A stretch of 59,792 nucleotides of DNA, the filler included, from Jimgerdemannia flammicorona (taxonomy: Eukaryota): the NCBI GenBank assembly GCA_003990765.1. It is 3 parts of 3 records of this genome, joined end to end, with 100 filler letters (N's around TTAATTAATTAA, not from the genome) between each part and the next. Parts side by side here need not be neighbours in the genome. Positions count along the whole stretch, not along the records: positions 1 to 19,865 come from RBNJ01001825.1; 2 more parts are not named here. One strand, given 5' to 3'. This document shows positions 2,190 to 48,114 of this stretch, in pieces. Under the pieces are notes generated by a model. The model saw only the letters and a program-made list of their open reading frames with translations. It did not search any database and was not told where the DNA came from. A program made the translations under genes and the position numbers. The number at the start of each line of letters is the position of its first letter. Positions within the stretch are counted from its first letter, which is position 1.

Positions 2190-4786
2190 ATATGGTCATC
2201 TTATCAGTGACTATCTGTGAGTTATGGAATAATCATAAATGGTATAGTCTATTGTATTTTAGATCTATGATATGTGACTGGACAATATTACCTAAAATAT
2301 ATATATAATATTATTTTAATAAATTTATATAACCTTAAGATAACAATAGTCTCTAGCAACCCAACTTATATACATCATATCAGTAGAATCCTGGTCACTA
2401 CTATTCAAAATTAGAAGTTTCATTAAAAGCATACATACTAGTATTAGTAAAAAGAACTGATTCATATGGACTGCCCTTTGTCTTCAAGAGCTGATTGATG
2501 GTTTTTTATATACATAACTGTACCTTCAGCCTGTCTTTGTTTTGTTGGAGAATTGTAAAGCCTGGTAGCTTTGTTTCAGAATTCAAGAGAGATATAGTGT
2601 TACTTACTATATATGTGAAGATGGGTCTTTCTGCCTTGTCCTTTGTTGCATGATTCAAATATAATGCATATTTTCTATTTACATCAATGAATATTAGATG
2701 GAGAACAGAGTAGAGGATCTGATAGCAATATTCTTCTTCCAACATTCTGTTGGGTATAATGGCTGGAAGAGTTTGAGACCTATTATATAAAAGAACCAAT
2801 ATATGATTAGAACCTCTATACAATTTCCAAAAGAACTAAAGATTAGAAAAGAAGCGAGCTTGATACTTGCATGGCATTAAAGATTTGTATAGCTAAATGA
2901 CTAATATCTGAATTTGTTGGATTCAAATACACATCCTTATCCTGTAAGAAGTCTGTAGATGCAGAGTGTAAAGAGGTAGAAACCTCCATTGGTAATAGAG
3001 GATCTGTGCTAGCATATGGATTTTGAGAGATGATTCTTTGCCACTCTATATTGGTAAATACTGAATAGAGACATAGAGACTGAAGCACAATGATTGAAAC
3101 CAGGGCCCTATTATCAAGTATAGAATAATGAGTATAATATATTATAAAGTTAAGAACTACTTGAAGAATAAAAGAAATCTAAAATACTTATAAGACCTCA
3201 AAAATGTCATTCCAAAATTAGCCCTTTGTGGTCGCTCCAGTAAGAACAGCCATCTGGTATACTCGAAATCTCTCAGTAACATTGATGTCATTGACTATCC
3301 ACTAAATAACAGAAATATATTGTGAGATATAAAAATTAGAATAAAAAGAGAGAGCATTATATACATACTTCTGTTATTCACTCCTGCTGTATCTGTTCTG
3401 CTACTTCTGTTAGATTAACTAGTATGACTTCTACATCCTCGATCATCTCAGACTGGTCATCAATGTGAATACTAGAATTGTCGTCGGTCTGCGGTGCATC
3501 TACATTAATAGTGACACACAGGAAGTTAAGGTCTATAATCTTTTAACGCAGTCTGAAAAATGTATCTTATTGCCAGAAAAAAAAAAAAAAAAAAAAAAAG
3601 CTCACTATAATATACGATTTGGGTTTTACGCTTCATTCGTTTTTCTTTAATTTTAGTGCCATCGCCGTCCCTCCCAGCAACCTGCTTTGAAAAGATATGG
3701 TCACAACTATAAATATCTCTGATAATTATGTATATATGAAAAAAAAAAAAAAATTATCTAGATCAACTTACACCCTCACGCGAGTCGATAACTTCAGGTA
3801 GCTTTCGTTTCAACTTCTGCCCTTGCTTGTTATACCCGATCTTGAAAAATGGAAAATTGTATTAGCATATATGCTGAGCCAGCAATCGCCAGTGCATGAC
3901 TATTGATCACCTCTCATCCTCAACTCGATGACATCGTAGGGTGTGTGTTTCTCTCAATTGGAAAAAAACCCCGCGCGAACCTCCAGCGTCGCAGGCTGGT
4001 GGACGCTTCCCACTTCAGCCACTAGGGCTTCTGTGACAGAGTCACTCAAAGACATCGTGTAGAAGGGAGAGGTGCTCCCTCAACTTGATGACATCGTAGG
4101 GTGTGGGCTTCTCCCAATTGAAAAAACACGCGCGAACCTCCAGCGTCGCAGGCTGGACGCTTCCCACTTCAGCCACGAGGGCTTCCGTGACAGAGTCACT
4201 CGAAGACATCGTAGAGAAGAGGGAGGTGCTCTCAAATGGTAGACAAGAACCGTGCACTTGATAACATCGTAGGGTGTGTGTTTCTCCCAATTGGAAAAAC
4301 CCGCGCGAACCTCCAACGTCGCAGGCCGGTGGACGCTTCCCACTTCAGCCCTAGGGCTTCTGTGACAAAGTCACTCAAAGATATCATTCTGTGTGGTTCG
4401 AATTGTCAGCATTTTGTCAGAATACCAGAATACTGACCTTTAATATGTTTCGTAAGCCAGCAATCCTTTTGTCAACATTCGTCCCACTTGCAACATTCTC
4501 CTGGATGACACAGAGTTCCTTTAGCAGGACGTTATGAGAAGTGACCAATGTCGTCTTCTTGACTTGTGTTCTATAATATGCATCCCAGCTAGACACACAC
4601 CAGAGGAGGTACGAGCGCTTCCAAAAACCTAGTAGAAGAGAAAACAAGATCAAACTTTTGGTCTGAGGAATGCTTAACCAGCAACCTATACTATCCGAAG
4701 CTAGCATTGTACTTACTTGGATAATCAAGTTTCTGAAACACCTCCTCTGGGATGTCACTTGTTGGATTTTGTATATCCGTATCCAT
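2190..4786 (-). pseudogene. Multi-exon hypothetical gene with degraded C-terminal PD-(D/E)XK-like (REase-type) domain; LTR B inserted in its last exon
   Basis: ATG at 4786 (MDTDIQNP), GT-AG introns, exon SFWKRSYLLWCVSSWDAYY. C-terminal EEEYCYQILY...ERPIF...LLNSETKLPG...KDRLKVQL...DLKYNRLY resembles an expanded Mucoromycota family (RPDF...ExK; recalled, not searched). Stops and frameshifts present. Confidence 0.55.
3919..4387. repeat. Three tandem ~160-173 bp units
   Basis: ACT(C/T)GAT(G/A)ACATCGTAGGGTGTG...CGCGCGAACCTCCA...GGACGCTTCCCACTTCAGCC...GTCACTC recurs at about 3923, 4083 and 4256. Confidence 0.95.
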
Positions 4787-5662
4787 CGTTCGAAGTCTGA
4801 AAAAAAAAAAATTCGGGTTACAAAATTTGTAGCTGCGAAAGGAATTCACTATGAAATGCGTCTTGGGAGTTCGGTGTAAGCGAACCCGACAGGTAGATGA
4901 ATATAGTAAGCAAGTGAAAGAAAAAATAAATGGTGTGTAATGCGCACTATGTGAAGCTAAGATGATGGCGATGAATATGTGTCCATGTCTTTGCTTGACA
5001 CAAGTAAAAAGCGTGCACGGCATTGTAATAGGACGAAATATTTAAAGTTTGCAACTTGGGTCACGCAAAGAGTTGGCAGGGAGTACAACCATCACGCCGA
5101 GTGCAACTCTCGACTAACGACTTCTTATGATTCACTCTCGTTGCTCAACCTTCCTTTGCATGAGGTAGGTGCGGCAAGGGTGGTGAGGGGAAGACGGAAT
5201 GAATCATAACTCTCTATGATAATTGGTGTTGGATAGATTGAGGGAGGTATTTACGTTGTGTGGGTTTGATGACCCTATCACGTTCACAGCTGTACGATAG
5301 AACTACACTTAGGAAACGGGAACCGTTGGAGCAGGCTTCGTGGCTTGGTGATATATAACCTAACATACGTACAGACAAGACTAGACGTTATGCAGCTTCA
5401 GACACTTGGCCACTCACGACTAAAAACCGTGGTCAACTTTATAAGATTAGGATACATTGTTATTGCGCTAGTATTAGATATACGTACTCTATGCTATTCT
5501 TCGAATAAGAACCTCTCGAGAAGTAAAGGGATGTATTGTCTATGACTCGTCTTACGTCCAAGCCTTGTCCCGAACCCTTTTATCGCGTATTGACGTCAAT
5601 GCAAAAGAGGACTAACTGCAGACACGTTTCCCATCACTCAGCCCTGCTACTCGGCACCCACT

Positions 5663-6208
5663 CTATCGGCGCGCAATCTTGGCGCGCGGTGCCTGCCCCG
5701 ATTCCTGTCTCTTTTGCAACTTCTGCTGCCTCTTTGACCCGCCCGCGGAGGTGTCGTCGGCATTGCCCTCCGACGCGCTGCTACCGCTGAACAAGTAGGG
5801 CGCAATGAACCCCCATCCCTTGTACACGGCGTATGCCGGGATCGAGAGCATGAGCCACCAGAGCTTGTCCGAGATGAGGGCGGTGGTGACGTGGACAAAC
5901 CAGGTGACGTAGATAATGTCGAAGAAGTAGGCGACCAGACCCTCACCGTTGATGTCGTCACCGCTCTTGGCGAGCGAGCCGTCGGAGAGATAGACAGGGT
6001 TGCCCATGCCATAGAGCAAGTTGTAGAGATACAAGGTCACGGCGACGGTGGAGCCGTACAGCAGGAAGTGGGAAAAGGAGAAGGTAGACCAGTAGAAGAT
6101 GACGCGCCAGAGGATGTAGAAGATGTTGACGGCGATGAAGCCCCTCTGCAGGTTTGCAAGGGTCTTTTTGTTGTCAGCGGCAATGCGTTTTGCAGAAGTG
6201 TTTGCCAT
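5663..6208 (-). CDS. SND2: SRP-independent targeting protein 2 / TMEM208 (DUF788) family, 181 aa, intronless
   Basis: MANTSAKRIAADNKKTL start, TM segments, GSLAKSGDDINGEGLVAYFFDIIYVTW, LSIPAYAVYK and basic tail SKRQQKLQKR are typical of the family. Confidence 0.92.
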   Translation of the reverse strand: MANTSAKRIAADNKKTLANLQRGFIAVNIFYILWRVIFYWSTFSFSHFLLYGSTVAVTLYLYNLLYGMGNPVYLSDGSLAKSGDDINGEGLVAYFFDIIYVTWFVHVTTALISDKLWWLMLSIPAYAVYKGWGFIAPYLFSGSSASEGNADDTSAGGSKRQQKLQKRQESGQAPRAKIARR

Positions 6209-6380
6209 GGGTGGTAAGAGGAGCAGGGAAAGGAACAACAATTGGATGGTGAGATTGAAAGAAAATGGTGTGTCGGTGCGGGTGGCTTGGCGGATTTACG
6301 AGACGTCGACTCCTCGCCAGCCACGTCACAGAAATCCCCATTTCTCTCTCCCCAACTCACCCACCCTCCAGTGGCCCACA
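6209..6380. promoter_or_regulatory. Bidirectional promoter with GCCACGTCA (= TGACGTGGC) bZIP/UPRE-like element at 6320-6328
   Basis: 172 bp between divergent ATGs (6208 minus, 6381 plus); the motif is read directly from the sequence. Confidence 0.6.
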
Positions 6381-8638
6381 ATGCTCAGGCGCATCTCGAA
6401 AAACGTCGCCGTCCTCGACGCATTCCCAAAGGTTGAGGTCGAGAACCAGCAGAGGAGCGATAAGGGTGGCATGCTCACCATCTTGCTCACTCTCATTCTC
6501 TTGCTGCTGACCCTGGCCGAGTTGAGGGAGTACGTAAAGATATCAAGCGACGAAGAGGTTCACCCTGGATATCGTTCTAATTTGTTATCACACACCCTGC
6601 ACGTGCATAGCTACCGCAAGCTGAATCACACGTATGAGTTCCTCGTCGACCAGCATATCGATTCCAAAATTCAGATAAATGTCGACTTGACGATCGCGAT
6701 GCAGTGCAACGGTATGAGCTAATGGACTTTCTTTCCTCTAATGCGTTGGCTCCTTCGCCAAATTTACGTAGTGATACTAACTCCGGTCCTAAACGTATCC
6801 AGCCCTGTCCGTCAACGTTCTGGATGTCGCCGGTGAGCGATTGTATCTGACCCAAAACCTTCACATCGTCCCGGTATTAATCCTCACACTCTTCTCTTGC
6901 TTCGCATATCAAAATCTCCTTTTTGAAATTATGCACACGATTGGGTTACATCTGACTTCTTCCATGTTCCTGTCGCTCCCTTCCTAGACAAGCTTCGAAA
7001 TCGGCAGGGCGCGTCCCTTAGGGTAAGGACTGTTTTGTAGATTGTTCTTCCAACTTCGTCCACCTTGCTCATTAATTCATAGTTAATTTTACGACTCACG
7101 CATCCGGTCCCTTTAGCGCGGGCAGACAGCGTGAGCTCAACATCCGCCGTATCTTGAAGGCCGCGAGAATGAACAAGGCGCCGGATTCGACGACCATTGG
7201 ATGTATGTTGTACTCCCAATATTTTTATTTTATTTTATTTTATTTTTTTTTGAGGAGGAAGGGTGTCTGGTGTGGATTGTGAATGAAACTCAACCCTTTT
7301 GATGTCAATTCGAAATTGTTTGGGTCTCTTTCTCGTCAGACCTGGAAATTGATGCGGCCTGGTGAAAGCCCGCTCGATGTCGCTCACCATTTTTATGAAC
7401 AATCTCTCCCACTTCCTTCACACATCAGCCGGGGACGATGGCGCGTGCCGCATCCTTGGTTCGTTCGAGGTTAACAAAGTGAACGGCAACCTGCACATAA
7501 CATCGCTGGGCCATGGTTACAGTGCGTATCGGTTTGACGTGACTAGTTTTGATCTCATCTCGTTTCCTATCATATCCCCTCGAGATGTCTCACCCAATTA
7601 ACGTAATAACCTCATCACTCTACATGTCGTAGGTGGCGCCCATACTGAACACGATGGTAGGTCCCCATTTCGATTTCCGGGCGCTTACATAAGTGGTCCT
7701 TTCGATCATGAAATCCCCTCATCGATTCCTTTGTGGCGAGGATAATACCAGTACGGCTGGCCATAGCTCTGACGTTCCTTATTTACTATCATGGTGTAGC
7801 GATCAACTTTACCCATCGCATCGACGAGTTCTCGTTCGGTCCGCTGTACCCGAGCATCAATAACCCGTTGGACGACAGCGTGGAAATCTCTAATACCCGT
7901 GAGTTAGATGGTGTTTCATCAGGGGCGATTTTGGTTTTGGTGATTTGGATGGATCTCGGTGGTGATGTATCGTTATTATGAGGTTCACGTGATTTCGAGA
8001 CTGATGCTGATATTTTGCCTTGACACACAGATTTTGAGGCATTCCAATATTTCATCTCGGTGGTAAGCTTCCCCATTCATGAGCACCACTGGCTTTCATC
8101 GGTCGCACCGATCTCGTGTTTTTTCCAACTTCCTCTTTTGACCTCCATCTCCGCCATTCTCACACCTCGTTGTACGCAGGTTCCGACTATCTACATCGAC
8201 AACGCTGACAATACCCTGATGACGAATCAGTACTCGGTTACCGATTACCGCAAGACCTTCGACCACGAGAACAGTCGTGGAATGATTCCAGGTACGTTTT
8301 GCCCAAACATGACATAACCCTCAGGCAGACCTAAATCAGGCCCGAACGCACACCCGAATACCACTATTGATCACACACACCCCTGCTTTCCATCTCACGA
8401 AGGCCTCTTCTTCAAGTACGAGATCGAAGCTATCTCTGTCCGCATCACCGAGCATCGCCAGACCTTCCGGTATTTCATCGTCCGCCTCTGTGGCATCCTT
8501 GGCGGCGCTTTCGTTACCGTCGGCTTCGCGTACCGCGCCCTGCGGTTCATCATCGACTTACCGAAGGGAAGGCCGGCGCCGACAGGGGCCGGCGCCGCGT
8601 ACATCCCGACCTCGAACTCTGAGAAGCGGCGGCTGTGA
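6381..8638 (+). CDS. ERV41: ER-Golgi vesicle protein Erv41/ERGIC2 family, 11 exons
   Basis: LDAFPKV...KGG-TM, INVDLTIAMQC, ACRILGSFEVNKVNGNLHIT, INFTHRIDEFSFG, NPLD, FQYFISVVPT, TNQYSVT, PGLFFKYE, RLCGILGG. Ten GT-AG introns (first 6530-6610, second 6712-6802); stop TGA 8636-8638. Lacks the Cys-rich insert of Erv46. Confidence 0.9.
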
Positions 8639-9230
8639 GCCGGGTTGATGTGGCAAACGTGTGTTAGGAAATGCGAGGCGGTGGTAGACCTACATGTTTT
8701 CAAGACGTCGGCGTTCTAGGAGACCTATTTTTGATGGTCTGAATTTGTTCTCATGCTTATGGGATGTGATTGTGCGAACCTTGGTTTGCTGCGTCTGCCC
8801 GTCATACGTGTAATATATAGAACGTAATGTGCGTAAGGCATATTGCGCGAATATTCCAAGGAAGTGTACTGTTAGAATTATAAGGCAACCGATATGATAA
8901 TACCCGAGCAATGACTGTCGTGAAAATTTGCAAGGGTTGAGGAGCTATAATGCGATAAAGAAGATATATAGGCAGACTTACTGAGCTCCTGCGGTTGATC
9001 TGGCTCGCGATCTAGGTCAATATCAAGATCAGAGTTCGTTCCCACCCGATGCGAATTGTATGTGCAAGTCTTCATTTACATGAATGCTAGTACATCAACA
9101 ATGGGCATTACTAGGCATTGCTATGTAAAGTCTACTATCTCCGTGATGAGCTATGCAACACTGCGTTGTCCATTTTTCGGATGCAAGAAGAGAGTCATAG
9201 AAGCTCATTTCACACATTTTATTCTGGCAG

Positions 9231-9720
9231 GCTATGCAACTATCGATAGGCAACATTGTCTATGACTCCTTCGATGATGGCTATATGCGAAGTGAACTTG
9301 AGCCCCGCGTGCTACACATTCAGCCATGCAAGATGCTGCCTCTGGCCCAGCTTAGCAAGTCAACTGAGAAGCTGATGTTGTATCTGGCCTTGCATTGGTG
9401 AGTTGGTTATATATACTATATGAGATGGTTTGGGGTCTAGTTCTTTGATTGTTCATTAGAGATCAAAGGAACATGGACACGGGAGGCTTTTTGTATTTTA
9501 TGACGGTTACCAGGGGATTATGAAGTGTGGAAACATGTGATGAGGGGACCATTTGAAAATGATCCACCATCTATCTCACAGATCTCCCCACACGAAACTT
9601 CTATAACTACAGCCGATGCCTTTCTGCGCTACATCGACGCATTTACGTACATTTCCAAGTTCTACGCCAAGAATGCAGCGGGCAAAGCCGCAGAGGTGGA
9701 GGGAGAGCCGAAAATAGGTA
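9231..9720 (+). pseudogene. Possible two-exon gene fragment, unknown product
   Basis: CAG-bounded open segment (AMQLSIGNIVYDSFDDGYM...), GTGAGT...TTAG intron, then a second segment with one internal TGA. No family recognised. Confidence 0.25.
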
Positions 9721-10276
9721 AGTGGCATGCTATGTTTTGGGAAAGGGAGTGGATTAGTGACTGTCAGATAGAATGTTAGGTGGACTATGTTGAGTTTCCG
9801 TTTTGCTTTTTGTTTTTTAATAATAAAAAAAATAAAAAAAAATAAAAAAAAAATGTGTAGAAATGTTGTCAGCTGAAATCTTAAGGCTTTTCCGAGAACG
9901 TTTTGTAAGTTTTATTTTATTTTATTTTATTTTTGATCTTTTTTGCTATTTGTGAATGTTGTGGGGTATGAACTTGTCGGGAAGAAGATTGGAAAATGGG
10001 TGGGGCAATGTGCAAAAGGCAGCTATGAATATAGTGTAATGGTGACCCCAGAATGATGACATCAGCACAGGAGACAGCCTTTCCTTGCAAGCCACCAGAT
10101 CGGAACACAAGAAGATCATATAGTATATGAGATGAGCAATGATGACCAACTGTGAGTTATTGTAACCACAGTACAAGTATCCTGAAGAATATAAAAGAAG
10201 GATCAAGGAACCACAGTAGCAGCAACCAATAAGAACTACCAATCTCAAATTAGCTCAAAGACTTACCATAAATGAA

Positions 10277-11086
10277 ATGTCTACTGCCCACCAAACCTCA
10301 AGGTCAAAGAATCACCAAGGTATCTCAGTTGAAGAAAGGATGTTCCAAGATATCAGAAGAGCCATGAGAACCTGCTCAAGAAGGACTCCTAGTGTCAACC
10401 TGAGTACTGCAGACCCCTATCACTTTATTCTCTACCACCATAAAATGGAAATAAGGATCACTATTGCTACTGAATATCTTCAAATGTGGCAGGAGTATGA
10501 AATAGGAAACCTTCTCTGCCAGGAGTTCCCACAGGCCAGCCCTTAAGAGCTATAAGATGGCACTCCCATAGATATATGAGATAAGAATGGCTAAGAAGAT
10601 TCATCAGATCTTCAGGCATACACTATAGTTGATCCCCAACTTGGAGTATGTTAGAGTCTCAGACTTCAGAGATCTGTCATCCCACTATATCAATATACTA
10701 GAAGCCAGGGTGGCCACAGAAGCTCAGTCCACTATCACCCTCAATAGTGATAAAGTAGAAGACTTCTGGCATCCTATCCTTCAGGACAACCCGACCAATT
10801 CCTACAAGGATTGATCTCAGTATTCCAAGGCCCAAGCATCTAGGTTAGACCTTCCCAAGACCTCACATTTGTCCCTTATTTTGTAGAAGAGAACCTCATA
10901 GACTGGAGAGCCCCAGACCTCCTCCTCACTACCAAATGTGATGATATCATCAGTGATGACGTCATCCCACATGACATCAAAGTATGTAAAACATATAACC
11001 TATATGATGAATTCATGAATCTCATCTCCTTCAGTGATGATAATGATGATGATGAAGCCCCCATGGTCCTGAACTTTCTACTCTAA
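10277..11086 (+). pseudogene. LTR-encoded accessory ORF (~270 codons), 5' LTR copy
   Basis: MSTAHQ...LQMWQEYEIGNLL...AKKIHQIF...VRVSDFRDLS...acidic tail...VLNFLL*. Nonsense transitions plus two compensating indels. Present in all five lineage-A LTRs in the window. Confidence 0.75.
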
Positions 11087-11098
11087 GTTCTTTATTAT

Positions 11099-11220
11099 AC
11101 TGAATAATACCAGCACTGGTATTTTGATGTAACACTGGATAATTCCAGCACTAGCATTCTGAGGTAATGCGAAATTATTCCAGCACTGGTATTCTGATGT
11201 GACACTGAATTATACCAGTA
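11099..11220. repeat. U3 array of ~3.5 x 35-bp units each centred on palindrome AATACCAG-CA-CTGGTATT
   Basis: Units start at 11099, 11134, 11169 and 11204 (partial). The same array is at ~18330, ~28363, ~42085-42208 and ~44830-44968. TATAAATA follows at 11326-33. Confidence 0.9.
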
Positions 11221-13771
11221 TCCTTAACCTGTACAACCATTAGTGCTGACCCTGGAACTTAGTAGTTTTAGTTATTGGAATTTATATTTAGCTTTATATC
11301 TTAGCAACTATTGAATTATATTTTGTATAAATACTCCTCTTATTTCCTCTGAAATAAAGTCAGTCTTCTCAGTACAATACATACAATCTCTTGCAAGCAA
11401 TCTAAGAGATAATAAGATAGTTAAAGATAAGAAGTTTGAGGACTATAAGATCTTAGGAAGGCACTCCAATAAGAACTTGCTTATAACAAAACTTGAGTTA
11501 GTCTAAGAGATATATCTTGAAGAGAATCTGGCATATTTGAAGAACTTAGCAACCACTATATAATAACTTAGTGCCCATTGGCTGGTGATTCAAGATGAAT
11601 TCCTCACTTTCAAGCTGAAAAATGAACAACCCCTACAATAACTACTCTGACTACAAGAGTCACCTCTGCAAGAATTCAAGATAAGATGGAAATGCATCCC
11701 CCCACATTCTATAGATATACTACTGAAGAGTCAATCCTGATCTTCATTAAAGACTTTGAACAATTTGCCGCTGTATGAGTCCTTAGTGTGGATGCTCAAT
11801 TGGCCCTTCTACAAGTCAGTCTCAGAGGACCTGTCAGAGATAAGTTCAATGCAGCCACCATTGCTGATGCTAATGCAGCCAAACTTGCCAACATGAAGGC
11901 CTTTCTCAGAACAACATATTATATCAAAGAGATCAAGCAAGCTCTCAAGGATCAACTCAATACTATCTGCCAGGGACTTAGTGAAGATCCCAACTCATTC
12001 TATATCTGAATCTACCACCAGATTGTCTTGGCTGACTATAATGACTGCCTCAAGGAACAAATAGCAGATTCAACTTTCCTCAAAGGAGTTCACCCTGAAA
12101 TTTCCCTAGCAATCTGGTCTACTCTAGCTACACTGACCCTTGATCAGAAAGTGGTCTTTGCACAGAGATATTGAACTGCCAGATACCCTGCCGAACACTC
12201 AATGGAGAAAATAACTGGCATCAAGATGGAGCCATCAAAGCCAACTAGTATCTTATCTGCCCCAGTTGTAAATAGACAACCAACCCCACCTACCCCCAAG
12301 ATAGCCAAAACTGACCCAGTGGAAGAACTTACCAAGCAGTTTGCTGAGATGACTGCACACCTTAGTGATGTTGTTAGAGAAGTCTGAAGTACCAACAGGA
12401 GACCAGTGCAGAGATTTGCAGCTGCTATAGAAGAATACAATATCACATACTTTAGATGTAGAGAAGAAGGCCACTATGCAAAGAATTGCATGACTGAAAC
12501 AAGACACAAAGCCCAACTAAGCAATGCTAGCAGAACTAGAGAACAAACCAATGCAGTAGTCATCGAGGAGATTAGTGACACTGATGATGAAGAATACTAT
12601 GAGGAGCTTGAATTCTTTCCTGCTACTGAAGATACCAGAACCCAGTCCAAGCCCTATGATAAGAAGAGCAACAGTAAGCTAGTTGGAAGACCAAAGAAGA
12701 CCCCAGCTGTCACTATTTAAAGCAAGACCCAACCTAAGGAGATTGATCAAGACATAGAGTTAGATGAAGCTGCCTACCAAATTATTGAAGGCACTACTCC
12801 AGTCTCAGGAGAAAGTGAAAGCAAGAAGGAACAGAAGCTATATAAGACCAAGATCCATCAGTATGATATCTACAAGGACCTCAAGGAACAGAAGGTCAAT
12901 GCTACTTTTGGACAACTAGCTGAAGTCCCTGCCTTCAGACAGCAGTTGAGAGTAGGACTTGCAACTACTGCCAATAATTAAGAGTACAAGATTGTAGAAG
13001 CTCACAATGCACAGGAAGAATCTGAGAACTCAGGTGAAGAATCCGAAGACCAGTGCAAGACATCAGCCTATATCCTATATCAGATTGAAGACTGTATCTT
13101 TGATACCATCATTGATACCAGTGCTGGAGGATATCTCATAAGCAAGAAGGCAATTGACCACCTAGGCTGAGATATTGAAGAGTCCACCAAGATGGTCTAT
13201 GTTACAGTAGATGGTATATGAGCTACCCCCCTTGGAAAAATCCAAGAAGTCCCCATCAAGATAGGAGGAGCTACTATCCCAGTAGATATGATTGTTACAA
13301 GTGCCACCAACTATGATATCCTCATTGGCAACCAATGGCTTCACAAGGCCAAGGCCATCATTGATCTCAATGCTCAGAAGATGCAGATCAACTATAGAGG
13401 AAGAAAGGTATGAGTCTCTATCAATGTCCACAAAGGAGTTCTACCAGACATGAAGGAAGGAGATGAAGAAGACACAGAGGTCTTCATGCACTCAGTGAAC
13501 AAGAACAAGAACAAGACACCCAAGCTCACAGATGAGCAGTGGTACAACAAGATCATCGATGGCTATGTCTCTTAAGGAAGATGCCCCCATAGTACTAGGA
13601 TATACTGCTCTGAACACCTGAATGACTACTGGTCCTGTATCAGTAAAGTCAGGAAAATCTGTCAATAGAAACATAAGCAAAAAGCTACCAAAACAAAAAG
13701 GAAAGCCAAAGAAGATGACCAGCCCCCAGAGCTCCAAGCTGACAGCAATGATGAGGAGAAACAAGAATCAG

Positions 13772-14193
13772 ACATCACCCTCAAGGTCAAGAAGTTTCAC
13801 CCCAAAGCTAAGATTCCAGAATATAAGACTGAAGGAGCTATAGAAATGGACCTTGCCAGCATTCAAGATGCTACCCTCAAACCACAGACCACCACCCTAC
13901 TTGGTACTGGAATTGGAGTCAAGCTACCAGAGAACCATGCCAGAATTATTAAGACTAGGAGCAGTCTGGCCAAAAGTAAAATCTCAGTTAAAGGAGGAGT
14001 AATTGACCCCAATTACACTGGTGAGATCTTCTTTATAGTCAGAAATCACAACCACACCACCCCCTTTGAAGTCAAGAAGCATGACAGGATTGACCAGATG
14101 CTGATCCACGAAATCAAGAAGCCCAAAATCATTGAAGCCATCAAACTCATCAAGACCAAGAGAGGAGAACAAGGCTTTGGATCTACTGGAAGA
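13772..14193 (+). CDS. dut: Trimeric dUTPase domain in pol, between PR and RT (lineage A)
   Basis: All five motifs: GAI(E/G)MDL, RSSL, GVIDP(N/D)YTGEI, DRI(D/G)QM, RGEQGFGSTG. Confidence 0.97.
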
Positions 14194-14449
14194 GGAGCCT
14201 ATGCCACTATTAAGATTACTGAATTCAAGCACAAGAAAGACAAGGACCAGAACAAGCACACATATACCATTGGAGAAAACTTTCCCCTGGAGGAACAACT
14301 TCTCAAAATCCTGCATCAGAATAAAGGAGTACTTGCTACAGACTTCAGGGATATCTATAATCAAGAACCCAAGTACTACCATGAAGTTGACACTGGTGAT
14401 ACTAAGCCTATCTACCAGAAAGTCAGACCCATACTGCCTGTCTACAGAG

Positions 14450-16946
14450 AGTGGCTATGAGCAGAGCTCAAGGAAATAGAAGAAGCCAGGATCATCAAGT
14501 AAGCTATCAGCCCCTGGGCCTCACCCATTATTCTTACTCTGAAGAAAGGAAGCAAGCCAGGAGAGTTTGTGCCAAGACTCTGCATCAACTACAGGAAGCT
14601 CAATGCTATTACTAAGAAGGATAGACAGCTCTTGCCAAATATTCAAGAAATCCTTACCACTCTTAGAAGTGAAGCCAAATACTACACCACCTTGGATCTG
14701 TTCTCAGGCTTCTATCAGATTGGCCTCACTCAAGATGCCAGTGAGAAATCAGCCTTCATCACACCTGACACCACCTATATCTACCTACAAATACCATTTA
14801 GAATATGCAATGTCCCAGTAAGTTTTCAGCAAATGATGAATAGAGTTTTCAGCAATGAGATTGGAAAGTGGCTCTTTGTCTATGTTGATGATGTGATCAT
14901 CTTCAGCAATACTGTACAGGAACATATCAATCACATACAGCTAGCCCTCAAGAAGCTCAAGGAGTATGGCCTCTACATTAAGCTCAAAAAATGCAAGTTT
15001 GCAGCTCAAGAAATCACCTACCTAGGACACCTCATCAACCAGACTGGAATCCACACAGATCCCATAAAGATCAAGGCTGTTGCAGCCTACCCAAGATCCA
15101 AAACAACTACAGAAGTCTATGCCTTCCTTGGACTGGCCAGCTACTATAGAAGATTCATCAAAGAATACTCCAACATTGCAGCACCTATCTACAAGCTACT
15201 GAAGAAGGAGACCAAATTTGAATGGACCAAAGAGTGCCAAGAAATCTTCAATGAACTCAAGACCAGGTTGACCCAAGCACCTATCCTCAGAAGACCAGAC
15301 TGGAACTTAGAATTCATCCTGCAGACAGACGTGAGTACTATAGGACTTGGAGCAGTCCTAGCTCAGAAGAAAGATAGATATGAATATGTCATCTTCTATA
15401 TAAGCCAAGGTACCTGCAGAGCAGAACAGAACTACAAGTCATACAAGCTCAAATACTTAGCAGTAGTTTGAGCAGTAGATAAGTTCCACTACTATCTAGC
15501 TGGGAAATACTTTACTATTCAAACAGACCACTCTGCTCTTACCTGACTATTCCACACTCTGAACCCCAAAGGAATATATGTCAGATGGATCTACAGGCTA
15601 CAAGAGTATGACTGTACTATCAAGCACCACTCAGGAAAGACCAATACCAATGCCAATATACTCTCAAGGATACCCCAAAACACCCCATCAAGACTATTCA
15701 ACATAAATAAGGAGCTATATAATAGATTAATCAGCTACCTTGGGCAGCGGAAGATGCTCAACCACCTTGAACCTTGGACAATCAACATCATTAACTGGAC
15801 TTGGAAACAGTTTGAACTAGACAACACTATACTCAGAAAAGGAGGAAAGCTAGTAATATCCGAACACAAGAAGTATCAAGTAATGAAGAAAGTATATGAG
15901 CAAGGATACTTAGGAGGAACCAATACATATGATAAGGTAAGAAGAATCATATGGTGGCTCAAGATGGAAGAAGACCTGCACAAATTTGTCAAAGGGTGTG
16001 ACAAGTACCAAAAACAGAAACAAGATCAGTAAGACCAGACACCTGGTTTATCAAGAATTAAGCCTATCCCCTTCCACCACATCACAATGGATATCATTGG
16101 ACCATTACCAGTAACACTATCAGGAAACCACTATATTATAGTTATTGTAGACCTCTTTACTAAATAGATAGAGGCAGGAGCATTATAAGAAGCCAATGCC
16201 CTCTCTATAGTCGACTTCCTGTACTGAGAAATCATCTGCCGCTACAAGACATCAAAGTAAATCACAACAGACCATGGAACAGAATTTATCAATGGATTCT
16301 ATGAGATAATATATCAGAAATACAAGATCTAGCACATCAAGACCCCACATACTATCCTCAAGGAAATGGACAGACAGAGAGAACCAATAAGACCCTTAAG
16401 AACATCCTAGCGAAGATCTCAGAGATATATGAGAATTGGGATAACTATCTCCCAACTGCCCTCTCTGTCCTATGAGATATATAGTCACAGAGCACACACT
16501 TTACTCCAAGAGAGCTGCTCTTCGGAGAAGAATCTGATGGAACCTCAGCCATGAATCTAGACCTAACTTAGAGATGGGTTGATGCAGAAATCCAGCAACT
16601 ATACCAAATCAGGAAGAAGGCTGAAGATTACATCACCAAGTCACAAGCACTGATAAGAAAGAATGCGGAAAAGAATCACAAGGCCCTAGAACCCATCCAA
16701 ATCAGAGAAAAAGTTCTACTGTATTGAAATATGGTAGAAGTCTCATGATTGCGAAAACTAGAGCTCAAATGGAAAGGACCCTTCTATATGCAAGATATCA
16801 AGAGAACCACCTTTTGGCTTAGAAAAATCTCAGGGACCATACTGCCTACTATAGTACATAGGAACAGACTCAAGAAGTACCACAAACCTATACAAGAGAA
16901 GTAAAATATGATGACCACCTATGAGGTTCTAGTCTGCGAATCATAA
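14450..16946 (+). pseudogene. RT-RNase H-integrase of lineage A
   Basis: SPWASP, RLCINYRKLN, LDLFSGFYQI, YVDD, FLGLASYYRRFI, TDHSAL, MDIIGPLP, TDHGTEF, KWKGPF; multiple nonsense transitions. Confidence 0.95.
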
Positions 16947-17501
16947 TAGTATATCCTGTGACCAGCAGGCTATCTGTCTGGACCATTCTCTAAGGGATAT
17001 GATACTGGCAACTACTCATCTATAAGACTTTCAAAGTCAGAGAAGTTCAAACCATCAACTAATTGGTCAAGATCAGAATCAGGCCCTTGCTCTATATAAA
17101 GAGAGTGATCCTTCACCATCATGCCAAAATACAAAGAGAAGATGCCAGTCCATAAATACTACTTTTCGACCCCTTGCCAGAGGTTATGGGATTAGCAAAT
17201 TTTTTAGGACTGGACCAATGAATAAGGATGCTCAGGAAGATCCTTATTCAGGAGGAAGATGTAATGGTGACTCCAGAATGATGATATCAGCACAGAAGAC
17301 AGCCTTTCCTTACAAGCCACTAGATCAGAACACAAGAAGATCATACAGCATATGAGATGAGTAATGATGACCAACTGTGAGTCATTGTAACCACAGTATA
17401 AGCATTCTGAAGAATATAAAAGAAGGATCAAGGAACCACAGTAGCAGTAACCAACAAGAACCACCAATCCCAAATTAGCTCAAAGACTTACCATAAATGA
17501 A

Positions 17502-18317
17502 ATGCCTGCTGCCTACTAAACCTCAAGATCAAGAAACCACCAAGATATCTCAGTTGAAGAAAGGATGTTCCAAGACATCAGAAGAGCCATGAGAACCTGC
17601 TCAAGAAGGACTCCTAGTGTCAACCTGAGTACTGCAGACCTCTATCACTTTATTCTCTACCACCATGAAATGGAAACAAGGATCACCATTGCTACTGAAT
17701 GCCTCCAAATGTAGTAGGAGTACGAAATAGGAAATCTCCTCTGCTGGGAGTTCCCACAGACCAGCCCTCAAGAGCTACAAGATGCCACTCCCATAGATAT
17801 ATGCGAGACAAGAATGGCCAAGAAGATCCATCAGATCTTTAGACATGCACCATGGTCAATCCCCAACTTAGAGTATGTTAGAGTCTCAGACTTCAGAGAT
17901 CTGTCATCCTGCCATATCAATGCACTAGAAGCCAGGGTGACCACAGAAGCTCAGTTCACTATCACCCTCAACAGTGATGAAGTAGAAGACTTCTGGCATC
18001 CTATCCTTCAGGACAACCCAGACCAATTCCTACAAAGATTGATCTCAGTATTCCAAGGCCCAAGCATCTAGGTTAGACCTCCCCAAGACCCCACATTTGT
18101 CCCTTATTTTGTAGAAGAGAACCTCATAGACTGGAGAGCCTCAGACCTCCTCCTTACCACCGAATGTAATGACATCATCGGCAATGATGTCATCCCACAT
18201 AATATCAAAGTATGCAAAATGTGCGACCTATATGATGAATTCGCAGATCTCATCTCCTTCAGTAATGATAATGATGATGATGATGAAGCCCCCATGGTCC
18301 TGAACTTTCTACTCTAA
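17502..18317 (+). pseudogene. LTR-encoded accessory ORF, 3' LTR copy (272 codons, no frameshift)
   Basis: Single frame from ATG 17502 to TAA 18315-17. Internal stops are TAA/TAG where other copies have CAA/CAG/TGG. Confidence 0.8.
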
Positions 18318-19125
18318 GTTCTTTATTATACTGAATAATGCCAGCACTGGTATTTTGATATAACACTGGATAATTTCAGCACTGGTATTCTGAGGTGACA
18401 TGAAATTGTTCTAGCACCGGTATTCTGATATGATACTAAATTATACCAGTATCCTTAACCTATACAACCATCAGTACCGACCTTAGAACTTAGTAGTTTT
18501 AGTTATTGGAATTTATATTTAGCTTTATATCTTAGCAATCATTGAATTATATTTTGTATAAATACTCCTCTTATTTCCTCTGAAATAAAGTCAGTCTTCT
18601 CAGTGTAATATACACAATCTCTTGCAAGTAATCTAAGAGATAACAAGACAGTTAAAGATAAGAAGTTTGAGGACTATAAGACCTTGGAAAGGTACTCCAA
18701 TAAGAACTTACTTATAATAAAACTTGAGTTAGTCTAAGAGATATACCTTGAAGAGAATCTGGCATATTTGAAGGACTCAGTGACTACTACATAACAATAG
18801 GAATGTTCAATATCTGAAGTGTGTGAATAGCCACTAACATTATTATCTCTGTTCTTTTATTCTTTTGTCATCATCTCCAACATCTCCTTTCTCACAGTAT
18901 TTGTCTTACTGCTATGATCTGTTATCTGATGGACTTTGGGCTTGAGCATGTGATGCAACTGACTATGCTTCTCTCAAGATTTACTGCATCAGACCAACTA
19001 TGCTAAGCATGGTAGCCTCTTCTAGACAAGATAGATATGAGACCACTAGTATTCTATAAATATATCTCTGATGAGTCAATTATTATCTTTCTTGATAATT
19101 TTGAGCAATATATTATAGTAAGGAC

Positions 19126-19865: not shown

Positions 19866-19965
19866 NNNNNNNNNNNNNNNNNNNNNNNNNNNNNNNNNNN
19901 NNNNNNNNNTTAATTAATTAANNNNNNNNNNNNNNNNNNNNNNNNNNNNNNNNNNNNNNNNNNNN
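19866..19965. other. Artificial contig linker N44-TTAATTAATTAA-N44
   Basis: Six-frame stop linker, identical to the one at 39830-39929. Confidence 0.98.
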
Positions 19966-19983: not shown

Positions 19984-22900
19984 GCATTGGTAGTGGTTGG
20001 TTCAGCAACCATAGTCTTGGTCAGGCAGTTAATGAATATGATAATAGTATTAGTACCAGATTGAGTTCATGGTAGTTGAGTTATAAAGTCTATGGTAATT
20101 TTCTTGAACTTCTTAGTAGGAATTGACAGTGGTTATAGCAAACCAGTAGGTACTTAGTTGGTAGACTTGTTGTACTAATATAGATTACAGCTAGCAATAT
20201 AGTTCTTGATTTCCTTGACTATGTTTGGTCAATGGTAGTAGTGTTGGATGTTCTTGACAGTCTTCTCAATTCTCAGATGATTAGCAAAAGGGGAGTTATA
20301 GTGTTCTTATAAACCCCTATAGTATAAGTTCATGTTTTCAGATAGATAGACTTAATCTTAATAATAGATTAAATTATTCTCAACAGTATATATCCTTAAG
20401 CTTATTTGAGAAAACTCTAGTAGCAACTGTATCTTCTTTATAAGCTTGCCTGATTTGGTTTAGGAATTCTGATGCCAAGGTGACCTATATAATTGTGATA
20501 AGATCTGGGCATCTTAATATGATATCTGGTACTATAAGTATCTTGCCAGGCTTATAGATGATCATTGAATTGAAGGTTTGAAGCTTGAGGTTCTACTTAG
20601 CTTATAGACATGACAGAGTAGGTTGGATATTGATATACTTGAGGAATTGATAATCAGTGATAATATCAAACTCAATATCTTTTAGATAGTATCACTAGTA
20701 GTCTAATATATATATTATTGCCAGTAGTTCCTTCTTGTAAGTGGCTAGCTTTTGTTTAGCTGGGGCCAACTTGTGAGATTCAAAAGCAATAGGACAATGT
20801 CCTTTATTATCATCTTGTGACAGAACTGCTCCAATGGCAAAATTCAATACATTAGTAGTAACTGTGAATTTTAGGCCTTGATCTGCATTATGTAGAACTA
20901 GAGTATGGATCAGACAGTTCTTGAGTTCTTGAAAGACTTGTTAATAGAAGAGGTCCCAGGTATAGAGTATATAGTGGTCTGAGTACAGGGCCTTCCTCAT
21001 GAGGTTAGTCAGTGGCTTGGTAATACCAGAGAAGTTTCTGACAAAGTAGTAGTAGTAGCCAGCTAGACTAAGAAAGAATCAGAGTTCTGTGAGGTTTGAT
21101 GGAATGAGACATTCTTCAATTACTTCTATCTTATATAGGTCTACTTGAATTTCTTATGTAGAGACAATGTGACCAAGGTATTCAACTTATTCTTTGAAGA
21201 ATTCACACTTCTTGAGCTTAGCATAAAGCTTGTATTTTTGCAGGATCTCCAGGACTATTTAAATATATTTAAGGTGTTCTTCTTTAGTTGTACTAAAGAT
21301 CAGGATGTTATCAAGATATATCAATAGGAAAATAAATAGTTGGTTCTTAAATATCTTGTTCATCAGAGTCTGGAATGTGGTGGGTGCATTGGTGAGACCA
21401 AATGCTAAGATCAGGAATTCATAGAGTCTAAAGGGAGTTATGAATGCAGTCTTGGAAATGTCTTCTGGCTTGATTCAGATCTGGTGGTATCCTGACATAA
21501 GGTCTAACTTGATAAAGTACTTGGCATTCTTAAGAGTATCAAAGATTTTGATCAATCAAGGATAGTGAATAGTAGTTCTTAACAGTGAATTTGTTGAGTG
21601 TATGGTAGTCTATATATATTCACAGAGTACTATCCTTCTTCTTGATGAATAAGACTAGTGAGCCATAAGGAGATTTGCTTGGCTAGATAGCTTCTCATAC
21701 AAGTAGTTCTTCTAGTTCCTTCTTGACTGCTTCAATTTTGAGTGGTGATATGCAGTATATATATTTCTTAGATAGTATAGCTCCTAGGGTCAGTTCGATT
21801 TCATGATCAACTTCTCATGTAGGCAGTAGATTAGGTAGCTTGTCTAGAAAGACATCCTTGAATTATTCTAGCAGTAACTTGATGCTTTCATTGACTAATA
21901 GTCTCTTGTCTTATTTCTTAGAGCAGATCATTATAATAAAGGTATGTATTGCCTTCTTAAGTACTTTCTTATACTATATAGCTGACAGTATTGCAATCTG
22001 GGTCTTGCTCATAGTCTTGTCTGTCTTGATCATAATATTGGCTCCAACTTGAAGTAAAGTGACTTCATTCTTACACCAATCAATATCTGGATTGTGTTTT
22101 ATAAGCCAGAGTTTTCCTAAGATTAGGTCATGATCTCCTAGTAGTGCAATCTCAAAGTCTACTTATTCCCAATATTTCTGGATCTTGATGGGTAGTTTGG
22201 TGGCAATTGATTCAATGGGGTGCAGAGTACTGTCTGCAGTAACTATATTATTGTTCTTGAGTGCAGGCTTGGTGAGAATCTTGAGGCTTTTGATAATATT
22301 TTGATTGATGAAGTTCTCTGTAGCTCTGCTGTCTATAAGTACTTAAACTTCTTTCCCTTTGACTAAGTCTTTGAAAATGAGCATAGCTTGAGCTCAATTT
22401 TCACTAAGGCTTGCTGCTTGATCAGTGCTACCAAAACCCTTTTGATCTTATTTGGTTTCAGGGAGTTCTTGGACTTCTGTAATCTTGAGTTGACTGGCTT
22501 TTTCTAGGATCATTTGTATGACTTGGTATTCTTCTTTAACTATATAGTCTTAATTCTTCTGGTTGACAAGCAAGACTTGAACTTGTCCTTGAAAGTCTGA
22601 GTTAATGATACTAGTATCTACATCTAAATGATGTTTGATACTGAGTCCTAATCATGGTACAATTCTAGTATAATGTCCTTCAGAGCATTGAACTACAATT
22701 CCAGTAGGTACTAGAGTACAGCCCTTGACTGGAATAGTGACTTGTTTGACTGAGTGTAGGTCAAGACCAATGGCTCTTTCTATTTGATATTGAGGGATTT
22801 GGGTCTTCAGATGAAGCTTCTTGACCTTGAGCTCAAGTTGACTGGTGATAGGATTGATAGATATATCCTTGAACAACATGGTGACTGGTCTTGAGAGTTT

Positions 22901-24362
22901 ACTAGTTTTCCTAGGACATTTGGTTGCAATGTGTCCTGTTTGGTGACAGAAGAAACAGGCTCCAGATTTCTTCAGGCAGTTCTTTTCTTCAGAGGTGAGC
23001 TTGGTGTTCTTTTTGTTCATGGTATCTAAGTCCATTGGTACTGGGCCAACTGTTTTTGGTTGGTTTCTGTAGTGGTTCTCAAAGTGGTTCTTCTTGTGGT
23101 ATTCTGATTCAAAGCAGTTGTCAAAGGTGATAATATCAAATCTATTGACAATTCTCATGGCTTCATCCAGAGTTTTGAGCTCTTCTAGCTCGACCTTGAC
23201 TTATGTATTTCCCTTCAGACCTCAGACATAGCAGTCTATCTTTTCATCCTCAGATACTGCTAGTAGCTCAAGTAGGATTGACAAGAATTGTATATTGTAG
23301 CTTTGCACAGACTTGAGTTGCTTAATGTTTGCTAGCTTGTCCCTGACTAGCTTGGTGGTATTAGCAGACTTGAACTGCTTGTAAAGGGCTCTCTTGAAAG
23401 CTTCTCAATCTCTGATTTATATATATAAGTGTACAGATGTAACCATTATATAATTGTACTACCAGATGGCTGTATTTTCTTAAAGGAGTGTAGTGGTAAA
23501 TTGGACTTACATATCATCTTCCATTCTTGTGAGTTTGAAGTATTAGTCTAATTGGAAGGTCTATATATCTGTAGATAGTCCCCCTCAATGGCTGTCAAAG
23601 GTATCTGGCTTAAGTGGCTTGAAACTGACTAGTGCTATAGCAGAATGTGATATACTTGTATTTTGTATTTTCTGCTATTCTAGTTGTATTTAAAGCTCTT
23701 AGATTTGGTGGGCCATAGTATTGATTATATCCTCTATTCTGAGTTGCTGTCTTTTTACTTCTTCTATAGCAGAGGGGTCTGGCTAATAGACTGACTCTTT
23801 GCAGCTCATTTCAGGTTTGTATGACTATTTGTAACTAGTTTCTGAATTTGTATGAGGTTTCTTAATAAGGTAAGGTATAATGATACTGCTGCTACCAAGT
23901 GTAACAGTTCTAGTTTTTTTAAGAGGAAGTAGCTAAATCTGGAAGTTCTAGTTGGCCTAAAGTAGCTTGAAGAGATACTTAAAGGTTCAAGTGTTCTTAA
24001 AGGATTTCTGGGAGAAAATATTCTGAGCTTTATTCAGATAGAGAATAAGGATATTTATATATAATCTGAAAAAAAGATCTAGAAGGATCTTAGAAAGAAA
24101 GAGAAATGCTAAGAAATAGGTTCTCAGCAAAGCTGACTAATACTATTCTACAATGTTCTGAAAGATTCCATAACTAGCTAAGATAAGATACTTGATACCA
24201 AGAAAAGATAAGAATATTCTAGTAGTGTCTAGGTGCTGAGAGAAGGTTCTAAGCAAGTAGAAGGTGGTAGAAAATAGTAGAATATTCAAGAAATGACAAG
24301 AAAAGACTAACTAAAAGATGTGAAAATATACTAAGACTAAATATAACTGTGAAATTGTTACA
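19984..24362 (-). mobile_element. Gypsy lineage D (5' LTR-gag-dUTPase-PR-RT-RH-IN, 3' end lost at contig edge)
   Basis: LTR 23900-24362 (TGTAAC...GTTACA); PBS TGGTAGCAGCAG (initiator-Met-like); PVPMDLD, CFFCHQTGHIATKC, dUTPase, LIDS(R/G)AT, YLD(N/D), IN IDFITQLP. Confidence 0.92.
22420..22835 (-). pseudogene. dut: dUTPase domain between NC zinc knuckle and protease (lineage D)
   Basis: LKVKKLH...AIGLDL...LVPTGI...IINSDFQGQV...QKGFGSTD, immediately followed by the PR motif LIDS. Confidence 0.9.
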
Positions 24363-25965: not shown

Positions 25966-26560
25966 ATATCATATTGAACTTTTAGTCAGAATACTTGATA
26001 GAAGGTGAGAGTTTTGAGTACAAGAATTGTTATAATATAAAATAGGAGAGAGAGATTGTACAGATATCTAAATATTGACTGAATGAGTGTGAGATACTTG
26101 GAGATTATCTAGAGACAGTGTAGTAAGATAATAGAGAGAGAGAAAGATGAGATAACTTGAAAGAACAGTTGATAGAGTATATTAGTAATGAGTAGCTCAC
26201 TGTTAGATAGACACTAGTAGTATAGATAGAGTTAGCTAGATACTGGCTATATATATTCAAGAATGAGAGACAGATGGTCTTGGAAAAAAAAATAGTAAGG
26301 TAAAAAAGATTGATAGTAGATATTCTATCAGGCTGGTGAAAAGGGTGGGGCCCTCAGAGAGATCACTATTACTGCCTGGTAAAAGAGATATATGAGAGGA
26401 GTAGTAGATAGATTGAAATAGTTAATAATATAGTTATTTTTAAAATAGTGAGAATAAGAGAGAGAGAATAAAGTAGGATAGAGTAGATTGGGTTAGAGCT
26501 ATCAGTATGGTATGAGAACTATGTATTTGTTATAAATTAGTTAATAAAGGGATCTAGTGC

Positions 26561-26591
<31 letters not shown>
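25966..26591 (+). mobile_element. 5'-truncated LINE 3' end with poly(A)
   Basis: Purine-rich degraded ORF2-like sequence, AATAAA near 26543, A-tail 26565-26591. Confidence 0.5.
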
Positions 26592-37459: not shown

Positions 37460-37693
37460 CTCATTTATTAACTATCTATAATATACTACATATCCTCATA
37501 CAACATCAGTAGCCCCATTCCACCCCAATCTCAATCCACCTTCACACTCACTCAGCCTTGTATCTTTAGAGTGTGAGTTACAACCTCACTGCCCAAGTAA
37601 CTAGATCCTCCTACCCAGTCTGCCCCACTCAAGAGTGGGTATGGGTTGTGAGCCCCAACCACCTCAAGTACTTGGCATCTTATACACCTGATC
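37412..37693 (-). mobile_element. Short poly(A) retro-insertion on the minus strand
   Basis: ~47-nt T-run followed by TTTATT (AATAAA on minus); possible TSD CCACCTCT/CTACCTCT. Confidence 0.5.
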
Positions 37694-37710
37694 TACCTCT
37701 ATTAGTGCCT

Positions 37711-38720: not shown

Positions 38721-38787
38721 TCCTCTGTCACCCCCTCTGTCAGTAATATACCACCACTAAATAAAGTATATGAGGAGTTTATTGTAT

Positions 38788-48042: not shown

Positions 48043-48114
48043 GTTATTTCTCAAAATATAATTACTCAACCCTCTAAAATCAATAATCTCATTTAATTAA
48101 AATTATTTAGCTAT

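Follow-up and report, generated by a model that had tools for sequence, protein, structure and literature searches.

Remains of a conserved protein-coding gene inside the long terminal repeats of a Ty3/gypsy element from Jimgerdemannia flammicorona

Simple long terminal repeat (LTR) retrotransposons are, to our knowledge, taken to consist of gag and pol only, lying between non-coding LTRs, and genes borne by the LTR itself are characteristic of a small number of complex retroviruses. One such gene is sag of mouse mammary tumour virus (MMTV), whose open reading frame (ORF) is said to be placed in the unique 3′ region (U3) of the LTR. In the accessible portions of the papers cited here, MMTV sag is a protein ORF of several hundred codons in a long (>1.3 kb) LTR (PMC2119085) and Sag is a type II membrane protein (PMC2191119), while foamy virus Tas is an element-encoded activator that is expressed from an internal promoter and acts on the LTR promoter (PMC8670036, PMC4929722). 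Extra ORFs outside the LTR are also on record in such portions, namely the additional ORF (aORF) classes of plant LTR retrotransposons (PMC7264820), ORF0 of rice Retrosat2 (PMC3485330), brtn of Botrytis Boty/BcGypsy1 (PMC8365987) and the ‘add. ORF’ drawn for fungal chromoviruses (PMC2864245). Here we describe a 59,792-nucleotide stretch of DNA from the fungus Jimgerdemannia flammicorona (GCA_003990765.1), hereafter the window, which consists of three ~19.9-kb pieces joined by runs of N at 19866-19965 and 39830-39929. A Ty3/gypsy element at 10035-18796 in this window holds, inside its LTR, what is left of a genuine, conserved protein-coding gene of ~270 codons that was under purifying selection. 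The gene lies wholly in the LTR, upstream of a palindromic array, a TATA box (TATA2) and an AATAAA motif, and each element therefore carries it twice. An accessory gene inside a fungal Ty3/gypsy LTR, together with the protein family to which it belongs, appears to be new; no description of an LTR-borne ORF in fungal elements was found in a partial literature search that did not cover Repbase-type element catalogues.

The closest known layout is that of MMTV sag, which likewise has its ORF within a long LTR; the sag ORF stands upstream of the LTR promoter, as the window ORF would if TATA2 is the genomic promoter. The fungal protein differs in having no hydrophobic segment, whereas Sag is a membrane protein, and it has neither sequence nor fold similarity to Sag; moreover, the setting here is a fungal host and a Ty3/gypsy element without env. 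With the aORFs the gene shares the character of an extra, lineage-conserved ORF of unknown function beside gag-pol, but those ORFs, as far as the accessible text of their descriptions extends, lie in the internal region, whereas the window ORF lies inside the LTR and is hence duplicated, and its protein family is distinct and without a Pfam match. Neither ‘in the LTR’ nor ‘inside the LTR’ occurs in the accessible part of the plant aORF review (PMC7264820). Retrosat2 ORF0 was considered as an LTR-borne precedent and rejected, since the available part of its description places it in the internal region, upstream of gag-pol. In its coding domains, the window element resembles the dUTPase-bearing Gypsy elements of the basidiomycetes Postia placenta (PosPlaTy3) and Phanerochaete chrysosporium; for PosPlaTy3-5, the accessible text places a dUTPase between protease and reverse transcriptase (RT) (PMC2864245). 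A dUTPase domain also stands ahead of RT in the window element, a likeness in domains, but no LTR-borne gene is described in that part of the source.

The element is a Ty3/gypsy LTR retrotransposon by its LTR structure and the order of its pol domains. It is complete, lies on the + strand and has two real LTRs bracketing gag/pol domains. These LTRs are the first two of five copies that we name c1 to c5: c1, the 5′ LTR, at 10035-11565 (1531 bp, +) and c2, the 3′ LTR, at 17260-18796 (+), which are 91% identical. Their outer ends are flanked by a 4-bp target duplication, ATAG, at 10031-10034 and 18797-18800; the 3′ LTR runs TG...ACA, and the 5′ LTR starts with TG and ends in ATA, taken as a C-to-T change. 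A polypurine tract, AGGAGGAAGA (17250-17259, +), abuts the 3′ LTR, and the sequence directly 3′ of the 5′ LTR, TTAGTGCCCATTGGCTGGTG, where a primer-binding site would be expected, is kept in the second element of the window. Pfam and the ORF list place gag (CCHC), dUTPase, RT-ribonuclease H and integrase in the internal region (11566-17259, +), all split into short frames: zf-CCHC (E = 0.001; 19.5 bits, slightly below the cut-off of 20.8), dUTPase at 13669-14460 (+; 2.7e-25), ahead of RT at 14503 and between protease and RT, then RVT_1 (1.7e-27) with RT_RNaseH_2 (4.4e-24) at 14503-15471 (+), which precede Integrase_H2C2 at 15547-16032 (+; 2e-11). The protease domain, RVP_2, was detected in the sister element at 30404-30901 (E = 5.1e-11); the second element likewise has a dUTPase domain, at 31253-31966. 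An earlier note on this DNA, made from the sequence alone, had called 10035-11565 a 1.53-kb gypsy LTR, and the recurrence at 17260-18796, the flanked dUTPase, RT and integrase domains, the polypurine tract and the target duplication bear this out. The three other repeats of 10035-11565 are c3 at 27248-28835 (+), the 5′ LTR of the second element, c4 at 41692-43326 (−) and c5 at 44845-46076 (−), the last of which is cut off after the array.

In all five copies the LTR gene is a pseudogene, and within the window the gene is present in these copies only. In c1 the decayed ORF occupies 10277-11086 (+), over which a tblastn alignment with an intact homolog, P0005, spans residues 1-271; read straight, this frame contains ten stops, the first at 10544-10546, and ends with TAA at 11084-11086, and when the frame is followed there are four stops plus deletions of two and one nucleotides. 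The remnant in c2 (17502-18317, +) has four stops, a retained ATG and no other damage; that in c3 (~27489-28350, +) has about six stops and a frameshifting insertion of four nucleotides; that in c4 (42221-43084, −) has four stops, an ATG changed to ATA and a final 176 codons that are open; and that in c5 (44984-45832, −) has three stops and has lost its start to a 13-nt deletion. Thus, the ~270-codon ORF that the earlier note reported at 10277-11086 is a real former gene but not an open one, and its statement that five copies in three unlinked contigs carry ORF and array holds for the frame and the array in all of them, although the frame is intact in none.

Several lines of evidence show that these frames descend from a gene. 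The in-frame stops of c2, c4 and c5 (4, 4 and 3) compare with 16-20 expected from 1000 dinucleotide shuffles, of which 1, 0 and 0, respectively, had stops as few as observed; the two other frames contain 12-31. Together, c2, c4 and c5 have 11 stops, and in ten of these a single transition gives the Q, W or R codon found in intact homologs; the indels that separate subfamilies in the C-terminal third (6, 12, 18, 21 and 30 nt) are each divisible by three. Fixed differences between the two lineages, c1=c2 and c4=c5, fall 17/8/30 on codon positions 1/2/3 and give a ratio of nonsynonymous to synonymous substitution rates (dN/dS) of 0.24 (Nei-Gojobori, 149 clean codons), well away from the neutral value of 1 that the earlier note had named as the alternative, while differences inside each pair are nearly uniform over codon positions (25/19/27 and 30/26/38). 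Third-position bias between lineages and uniformity within pairs together fit selection while the elements were active and neutral decay after insertion. That there was no gene, and that the frame was open by chance in a U3 rich in A or is a useless hitch-hiking fragment, would agree with the breakage of all window copies and with a family that lacks any known domain, but we regard it as extremely improbable: it is contradicted by the shuffle test, the in-frame indels, the codon-position bias and the dN/dS value, and also by intact homologs, in which the start is conserved and identity goes as low as 30%.

Those homologs make the LTR protein a member of a small orphan family. A word-indexed protein search returned 5 homologs and then 12, and an exhaustive HMMER search of 1.84 billion representatives, with no length filter, returned 5 matches, none of them a fused form of the LTR protein and the longest of 342 amino acids; altogether, the family has ~16 members among the 5.8 billion proteins searched. 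The homologs all stem from environmental data of JGI or ENA, lack a Pfam domain and reach at most 342 amino acids. They share 30-79% identity and fall into three clades, of which clade A (63-79%) contains the window copies, P0004 to P0011 and P0017, clade B (~40%) contains P0012, P0013 and the ORF of locus L001, and clade C (~30%) contains P0014 to P0016 and P0018. Natural versions are intact, as in P0005 (271 amino acids) and the L001 ORF (291), which answers the question of whether an open frame ever existed, and P0013 and P0015 have 342 and 325 residues. P0005 and the L001 ORF have a Met-Pro start in common. L001, on a 1535-nt contig, was the one related locus found in a metagenome scan, and a scan of viral contigs found none; P0013 is encoded on a 4848-nt contig. 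An in-frame stop stands 17 codons 5′ of the L001 ATG, so this cistron is complete without splicing. Compared with itself, L001 shows only a 28-nt repeat (170-197 and 1481-1508) and no definable LTR ends. The motif of this repeat, GTCAGGCGGAAC...TCAGAACA, sits on either side of the intact ORF, and a stretch of the window LTR at 10097-10111, ~180 nt 5′ of the ORF, AGATCGGAACACAAG, resembles it.

The damage has a clear signature. The whole element, including the LTR gene, was hit by element-targeted C-to-T and G-to-A hypermutation, that is, cytosine deamination. Between c1 and c2 there are 133 transitions and 1 transversion, and the observed/expected CpG ratio is 0.07-0.08 in the element (10035-18796) versus 1.00 in adjacent host DNA (4001-10000). 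Polarisation of the c1/c2 differences with outgroups was noisy because the outgroups are mutated as well, and the direction of change comes instead from soil-metagenome contigs aligned to 10035-18797 at at least 85% identity (6319 in run X1, 1108 in X2, 460 in X4 and 589 in X5). Run X1 contigs differ from the window element by T>C at 253 and A>G at 188 places, versus C>T at 65 and G>A at 42; the contigs mostly have C for window T and G for window A, and hence the window copy is the mutated one. At the protein level, intact homologs have Arg at positions that are Cys, His or Tyr in the window copies, replacements that represent CpG decay in the window. Classical repeat-induced point mutation was rejected, with TpA/ApT at 0.84 and (CpA+TpG)/(ApC+GpT) at 1.45 in the element; CpG is what is lost. 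Nine runs contain sequence of this family, each as a small share, and seven of the nine are labelled soil metagenome; the family is very abundant among soil-metagenome contigs. At 11037 these contigs also show a 6-nt deletion that keeps the frame. Elsewhere in the window, the repeat-rich segments 20000-27000 and 47000-59792 have CpG observed/expected ratios of 0.01-0.03.

This host attack bears on what the protein may have done. Arabidopsis VANDAL elements encode VANC, an anti-silencing accessory protein with a DUF1985 homology region, whose short target motifs are arranged in tandem in non-coding DNA of the same transposon. The LTR gene and its array resemble this combination of accessory protein and tandem motifs, but VANDAL is a plant DNA transposon and the window protein has no homology to VANC by Pfam. 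By analogy with VANC, the LTR protein might serve to weaken RNA silencing of the element or the hypermutation that the host couples to methylation, and not to activate transcription through the array; the conspicuous attack (CpG 0.08 versus 1.00; 133:1 transitions to transversions in the LTR pair), the continued abundance of the family in soil metagenomes (6319 contigs in run X1) and the combination of orphan status with a fast-evolving tail would suit such a counter-defence. We nevertheless consider it quite unlikely, as Pfam links the protein to neither VANC nor any known suppressor, nothing ties it to chromatin or RNA interference factors, and all five window copies were mutated anyway.

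The DNA around the ORF suggests how it would have been expressed. A conserved TATA box, TATA1 (TATAAAAG, 10190-10197, +), lies ~80 nt 5′ of the start codon in four of the five window copies, with TATAAAAA in c5; it was missed by the earlier note, and its presence upstream of the start codon changes the probable mode of expression of the gene. It is followed, just 5′ of the start codon, by a leader, AAAGACTTACCA(T/C)AAA (10257-10272, +). Both recur in L001, where TATAAAAG at 296-303 stands 73-80 nt ahead of the ATG (376) and the leader lies at 355-370, that is, at equal spacing to the ATG in the window LTR and L001. Positions 355-374 of L001 match c4 and c5 over 16-20 nt at 95-100%, and this leader is the sole strong non-coding match between the window LTR and L001, whose remaining DNA is unalignable and whose proteins are ~40% identical. 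Further downstream, 240 nt after the end of the ORF, is TATA2 (TATAAATA, +), given by the earlier note at 11326 and found on direct reading at 11326-11333; it is identical in c1 to c4. An AATAAA at 11353-11358 (+), conserved in c1 to c4, is a candidate poly(A) signal. Beyond the end of c3, at 28836-29048, the final ~200 nt of the LTR (positions 1330-1527) occur once more, in a block that resembles a duplicated R-U5 and perhaps arose by aberrant strand transfer. The block starts ~30 nt past TATA2 and thereby gives weak support to TATA2 as the genomic start; together with the spacing to AATAAA, it marks TATA2 as the promoter from which genomic RNA probably starts.

We lean slightly towards the reading that the gene formed an LTR-autonomous transcription unit with its own promoter and the LTR poly(A) signal: TATA1 and the conserved leader would drive an mRNA of ~1.1 kb ending at that signal, and genomic RNA would start from TATA2. 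A different arrangement, like that of MMTV sag or HIV nef, is that the gene sits in U3, would hence occur in the genomic transcript at its 3′ end only and would be translated from a spliced or subgenomic RNA made at TATA2 of the 5′ LTR, with TATAAAAG idle. The position of the ORF upstream of TATA2 and AATAAA is U3 if TATA2 is the genomic promoter, the block before the ATG begins with a possible splice acceptor (...AAAG|ACTTACC), and the LTR-borne ORFs of MMTV are expressed genes in the accessible part of their description (PMC2119085). However, the distance from TATA to ATG is kept between lineages of ~40% protein identity, splice acceptors with AAG are poor, and a donor was neither looked for nor found; we hold the sag- or nef-like arrangement to be unlikely.

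The protein itself offers few clues by homology and several by composition. At E ≤ 1, Pfam matched none of three window translations and 12 homologs, so that the protein matches no described gypsy domain of another function, and the PDB searched by sequence gave no match to the family. Its net charge is −20 to −28, but the first 30-60 residues are net positive (RSR, RRAMRTRTRR) and the rest, especially the C-terminal half, is increasingly acidic. As the earlier note had stated, there is no transmembrane segment (maximum Kyte-Doolittle 19-residue mean of 0.6-1.1). An AlphaFold model of P0005 from 11 sequences reached a mean predicted local distance difference test score (pLDDT) of 43.8, and one of the L001 ORF from 15 sequences reached 59.5, with a helical core at residues 20-165 (pLDDT 66-93), then a less certain helix and hairpin and finally a disordered tail; the helical core and the acidic, hydrophobic tail described in that note are thus visible in model and charge profile. 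Clades A and B share two motifs in the fast-evolving tail, DLI-x-F, with acidic residues after it, and P-x-(V/I)-L-N-F near the end. Structure searches with the L001 model returned nothing at E ≤ 0.001 from the PDB by Foldseek (best E = 0.32) or from BFVD (best E = 0.087), and the best of 48,161 chains in VIA-align had Z = 3.5; ESM Atlas gave a best feature score of 0.83 with an Atlas model at pLDDT 0.35 and nothing usable. ParB/SopB/VirB-type helix-turn-helix chains, at Z = 2.4-2.8 in VIA-align, are noise and were not counted. The folds proposed beforehand fared poorly: neither a helix-turn-helix nor any other DNA-binding fold was recognised in Foldseek PDB, VIA-align or BFVD, although the protein may have a DNA-binding fold of a new kind, and DUF3102 came at rank 37 (E = 0.82) in the BFVD search, again within noise. 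The DNA binding, the action on its own U3 and the anti-silencing put forward in the earlier note are not supported.

Between the stop codon and TATA2 lies the tandem array noted earlier, 12 bp 3′ of the TAA at 11084-11086; Tandem Repeats Finder delimits it to 11099-11218 (+), with 3.4 copies of a 35-bp unit (score 142, 75% matches). The palindrome of each unit is AATACCAG-CA-CTGGTATT, with 8-nt arms, and takes the variable form AAT(A/G)CCAGCACTGG(T/C)ATT, that is, AAT(A/G)CCAG-CA-CTGG(T/C)ATT, whose symmetric A/G and T/C variation indicates an older palindrome, AATGCCAG-CA-CTGGCATT. Across the five copies, 11 of the 13 tabulated units have CA at the centre and the other two TA (the tabulation pattern passed over a few units, including CCGG in c2 and CGGG in c3), so that the CG centre (AGCGCT) expected by the earlier note was not seen. 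Soil-metagenome contigs vary by one unit more or less, with skips of 36 nt and returns of 35 and 39 nt.

Composition and layout together suggest, tentatively and with more doubt than confidence, that the product was a nuclear regulator of its own element's expression. Its arginine-rich N-terminus and helical core would be joined to an acidic, hydrophobic tail resembling an activation domain, and it would act, directly or via a host factor, on the palindromic array between stop codon and TATA2 in a positive feedback. In the most specific form of this proposal, which we estimate to be unlikely, each LTR would be a self-contained gene whose product, a new sequence-specific activator or host-factor adaptor, binds the adjacent array and switches on the genomic promoter, so that a fungal Ty3/gypsy element would have invented a circuit like that of Tas. 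Foamy virus Tas is the closest match to this proposed logic, being an activator made from its own promoter that acts on the LTR promoter, but Tas is a proven DNA-binding activator, whereas the role here is predicted and no similarity between the two was found; furthermore, the fungal gene lies wholly in the LTR and the Tas gene lies between env and the LTR. An analogous action at the RNA level, as in Rev and Rex, is conceivable, in which the Arg-rich N-terminus would bind palindrome hairpins in the 3′ untranslated part of genomic RNA and the C-terminal hydrophobic motifs would serve as an export or packaging signal. With TATA2 as genomic start the array would be transcribed solely in the 3′ U3, a hairpin of 7-8 bp could form in each unit, the N-terminus is basic (RSR, RRAMRTRTRR) and the hydrophobic tail motifs are conserved; yet the arms do not covary, since among the 13 tabulated units three mutated ones mismatch as A-C and two others pair T-C and T-T at that place, Foldseek PDB and VIA-align gave no RNA-binding fold, and we know of no need for a Rev- or Rex-like factor for the unspliced RNA of simple LTR elements. 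We consider this RNA-level action very unlikely.

Taken as a whole, the best explanation of the locus is a once-functional accessory gene within the LTR, dead here, with its own transcription and a regulator role inferred, and in our judgement the case for and against this combined reading is evenly balanced. Several observations weigh against it. The LTR context is seen for the window lineage only, the other homologs being on short contigs, and the dN/dS value rests on 149 codons from copies that share a hypermutation bias. Both promoters, the poly(A) site and the mRNA are predictions from sequence alone. Pfam, PDB sequence, Foldseek, VIA-align and BFVD searches gave no DNA-binding fold or family, and a net charge of −20 to −28 is unusual in a direct DNA binder. 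No comparable array occurs in L001 within its 284 nt after the stop, and the link between ORF and array is thus confined to the window lineage. Finally, it is ordinary for LTRs to have tandem repeats 5′ of a TATA box as enhancers on which host factors act, and for these an element-encoded partner is unnecessary.

A gene in the LTR makes it possible for the LTR to be a transcription unit of its own and for each element to carry a doubled gene dose. A solo LTR would keep the gene, and solo LTRs could remain genetically active; if the array-binding activator were true, those left by recombination would remain a source of the factor, in trans, for all members of the family. Should the protein regulate the element that encodes it, autoregulation like that of retroviruses would have arisen independently here, in an orphan family that has no recognised fold and seems to belong to a single, very abundant group of elements from soil fungi.

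Other features of the LTRs and their surroundings are of lesser weight. Near the LTR start, at 10057-10064, stands TGACATCA, an octamer that would be like a cAMP response element/activating transcription factor site if its CA was formerly CG, and an intact TGACGTCA lies at 10953-10960, in the part of the ORF coding for the acidic tail; the two may be host basic leucine zipper sites or a coincidence. Antisense frames of 100 and 89 codons, at 9946-10248 (−) and 17204-17473 (−), cover the first 200 nt of both LTRs and may be chance frames in the T-rich antisense strand. The host gene TMEM208/SND2 lies beside the element at 5663-6295; its nearest Atlas cluster is basidiomycete (score 0.97), which is a hint, though no proof, that the host is a basidiomycete. 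A separate repeat family, unrelated to the LTR, occurs at 32734-33038, 34655-34959, 38786-39090 and 48638-48942 with 85-89% identity, and three overlapping + frames of 346-396 codons at 37570-38828 fall in a CT-rich short-period repeat and encode LPILPVLP-like sequence of low complexity.

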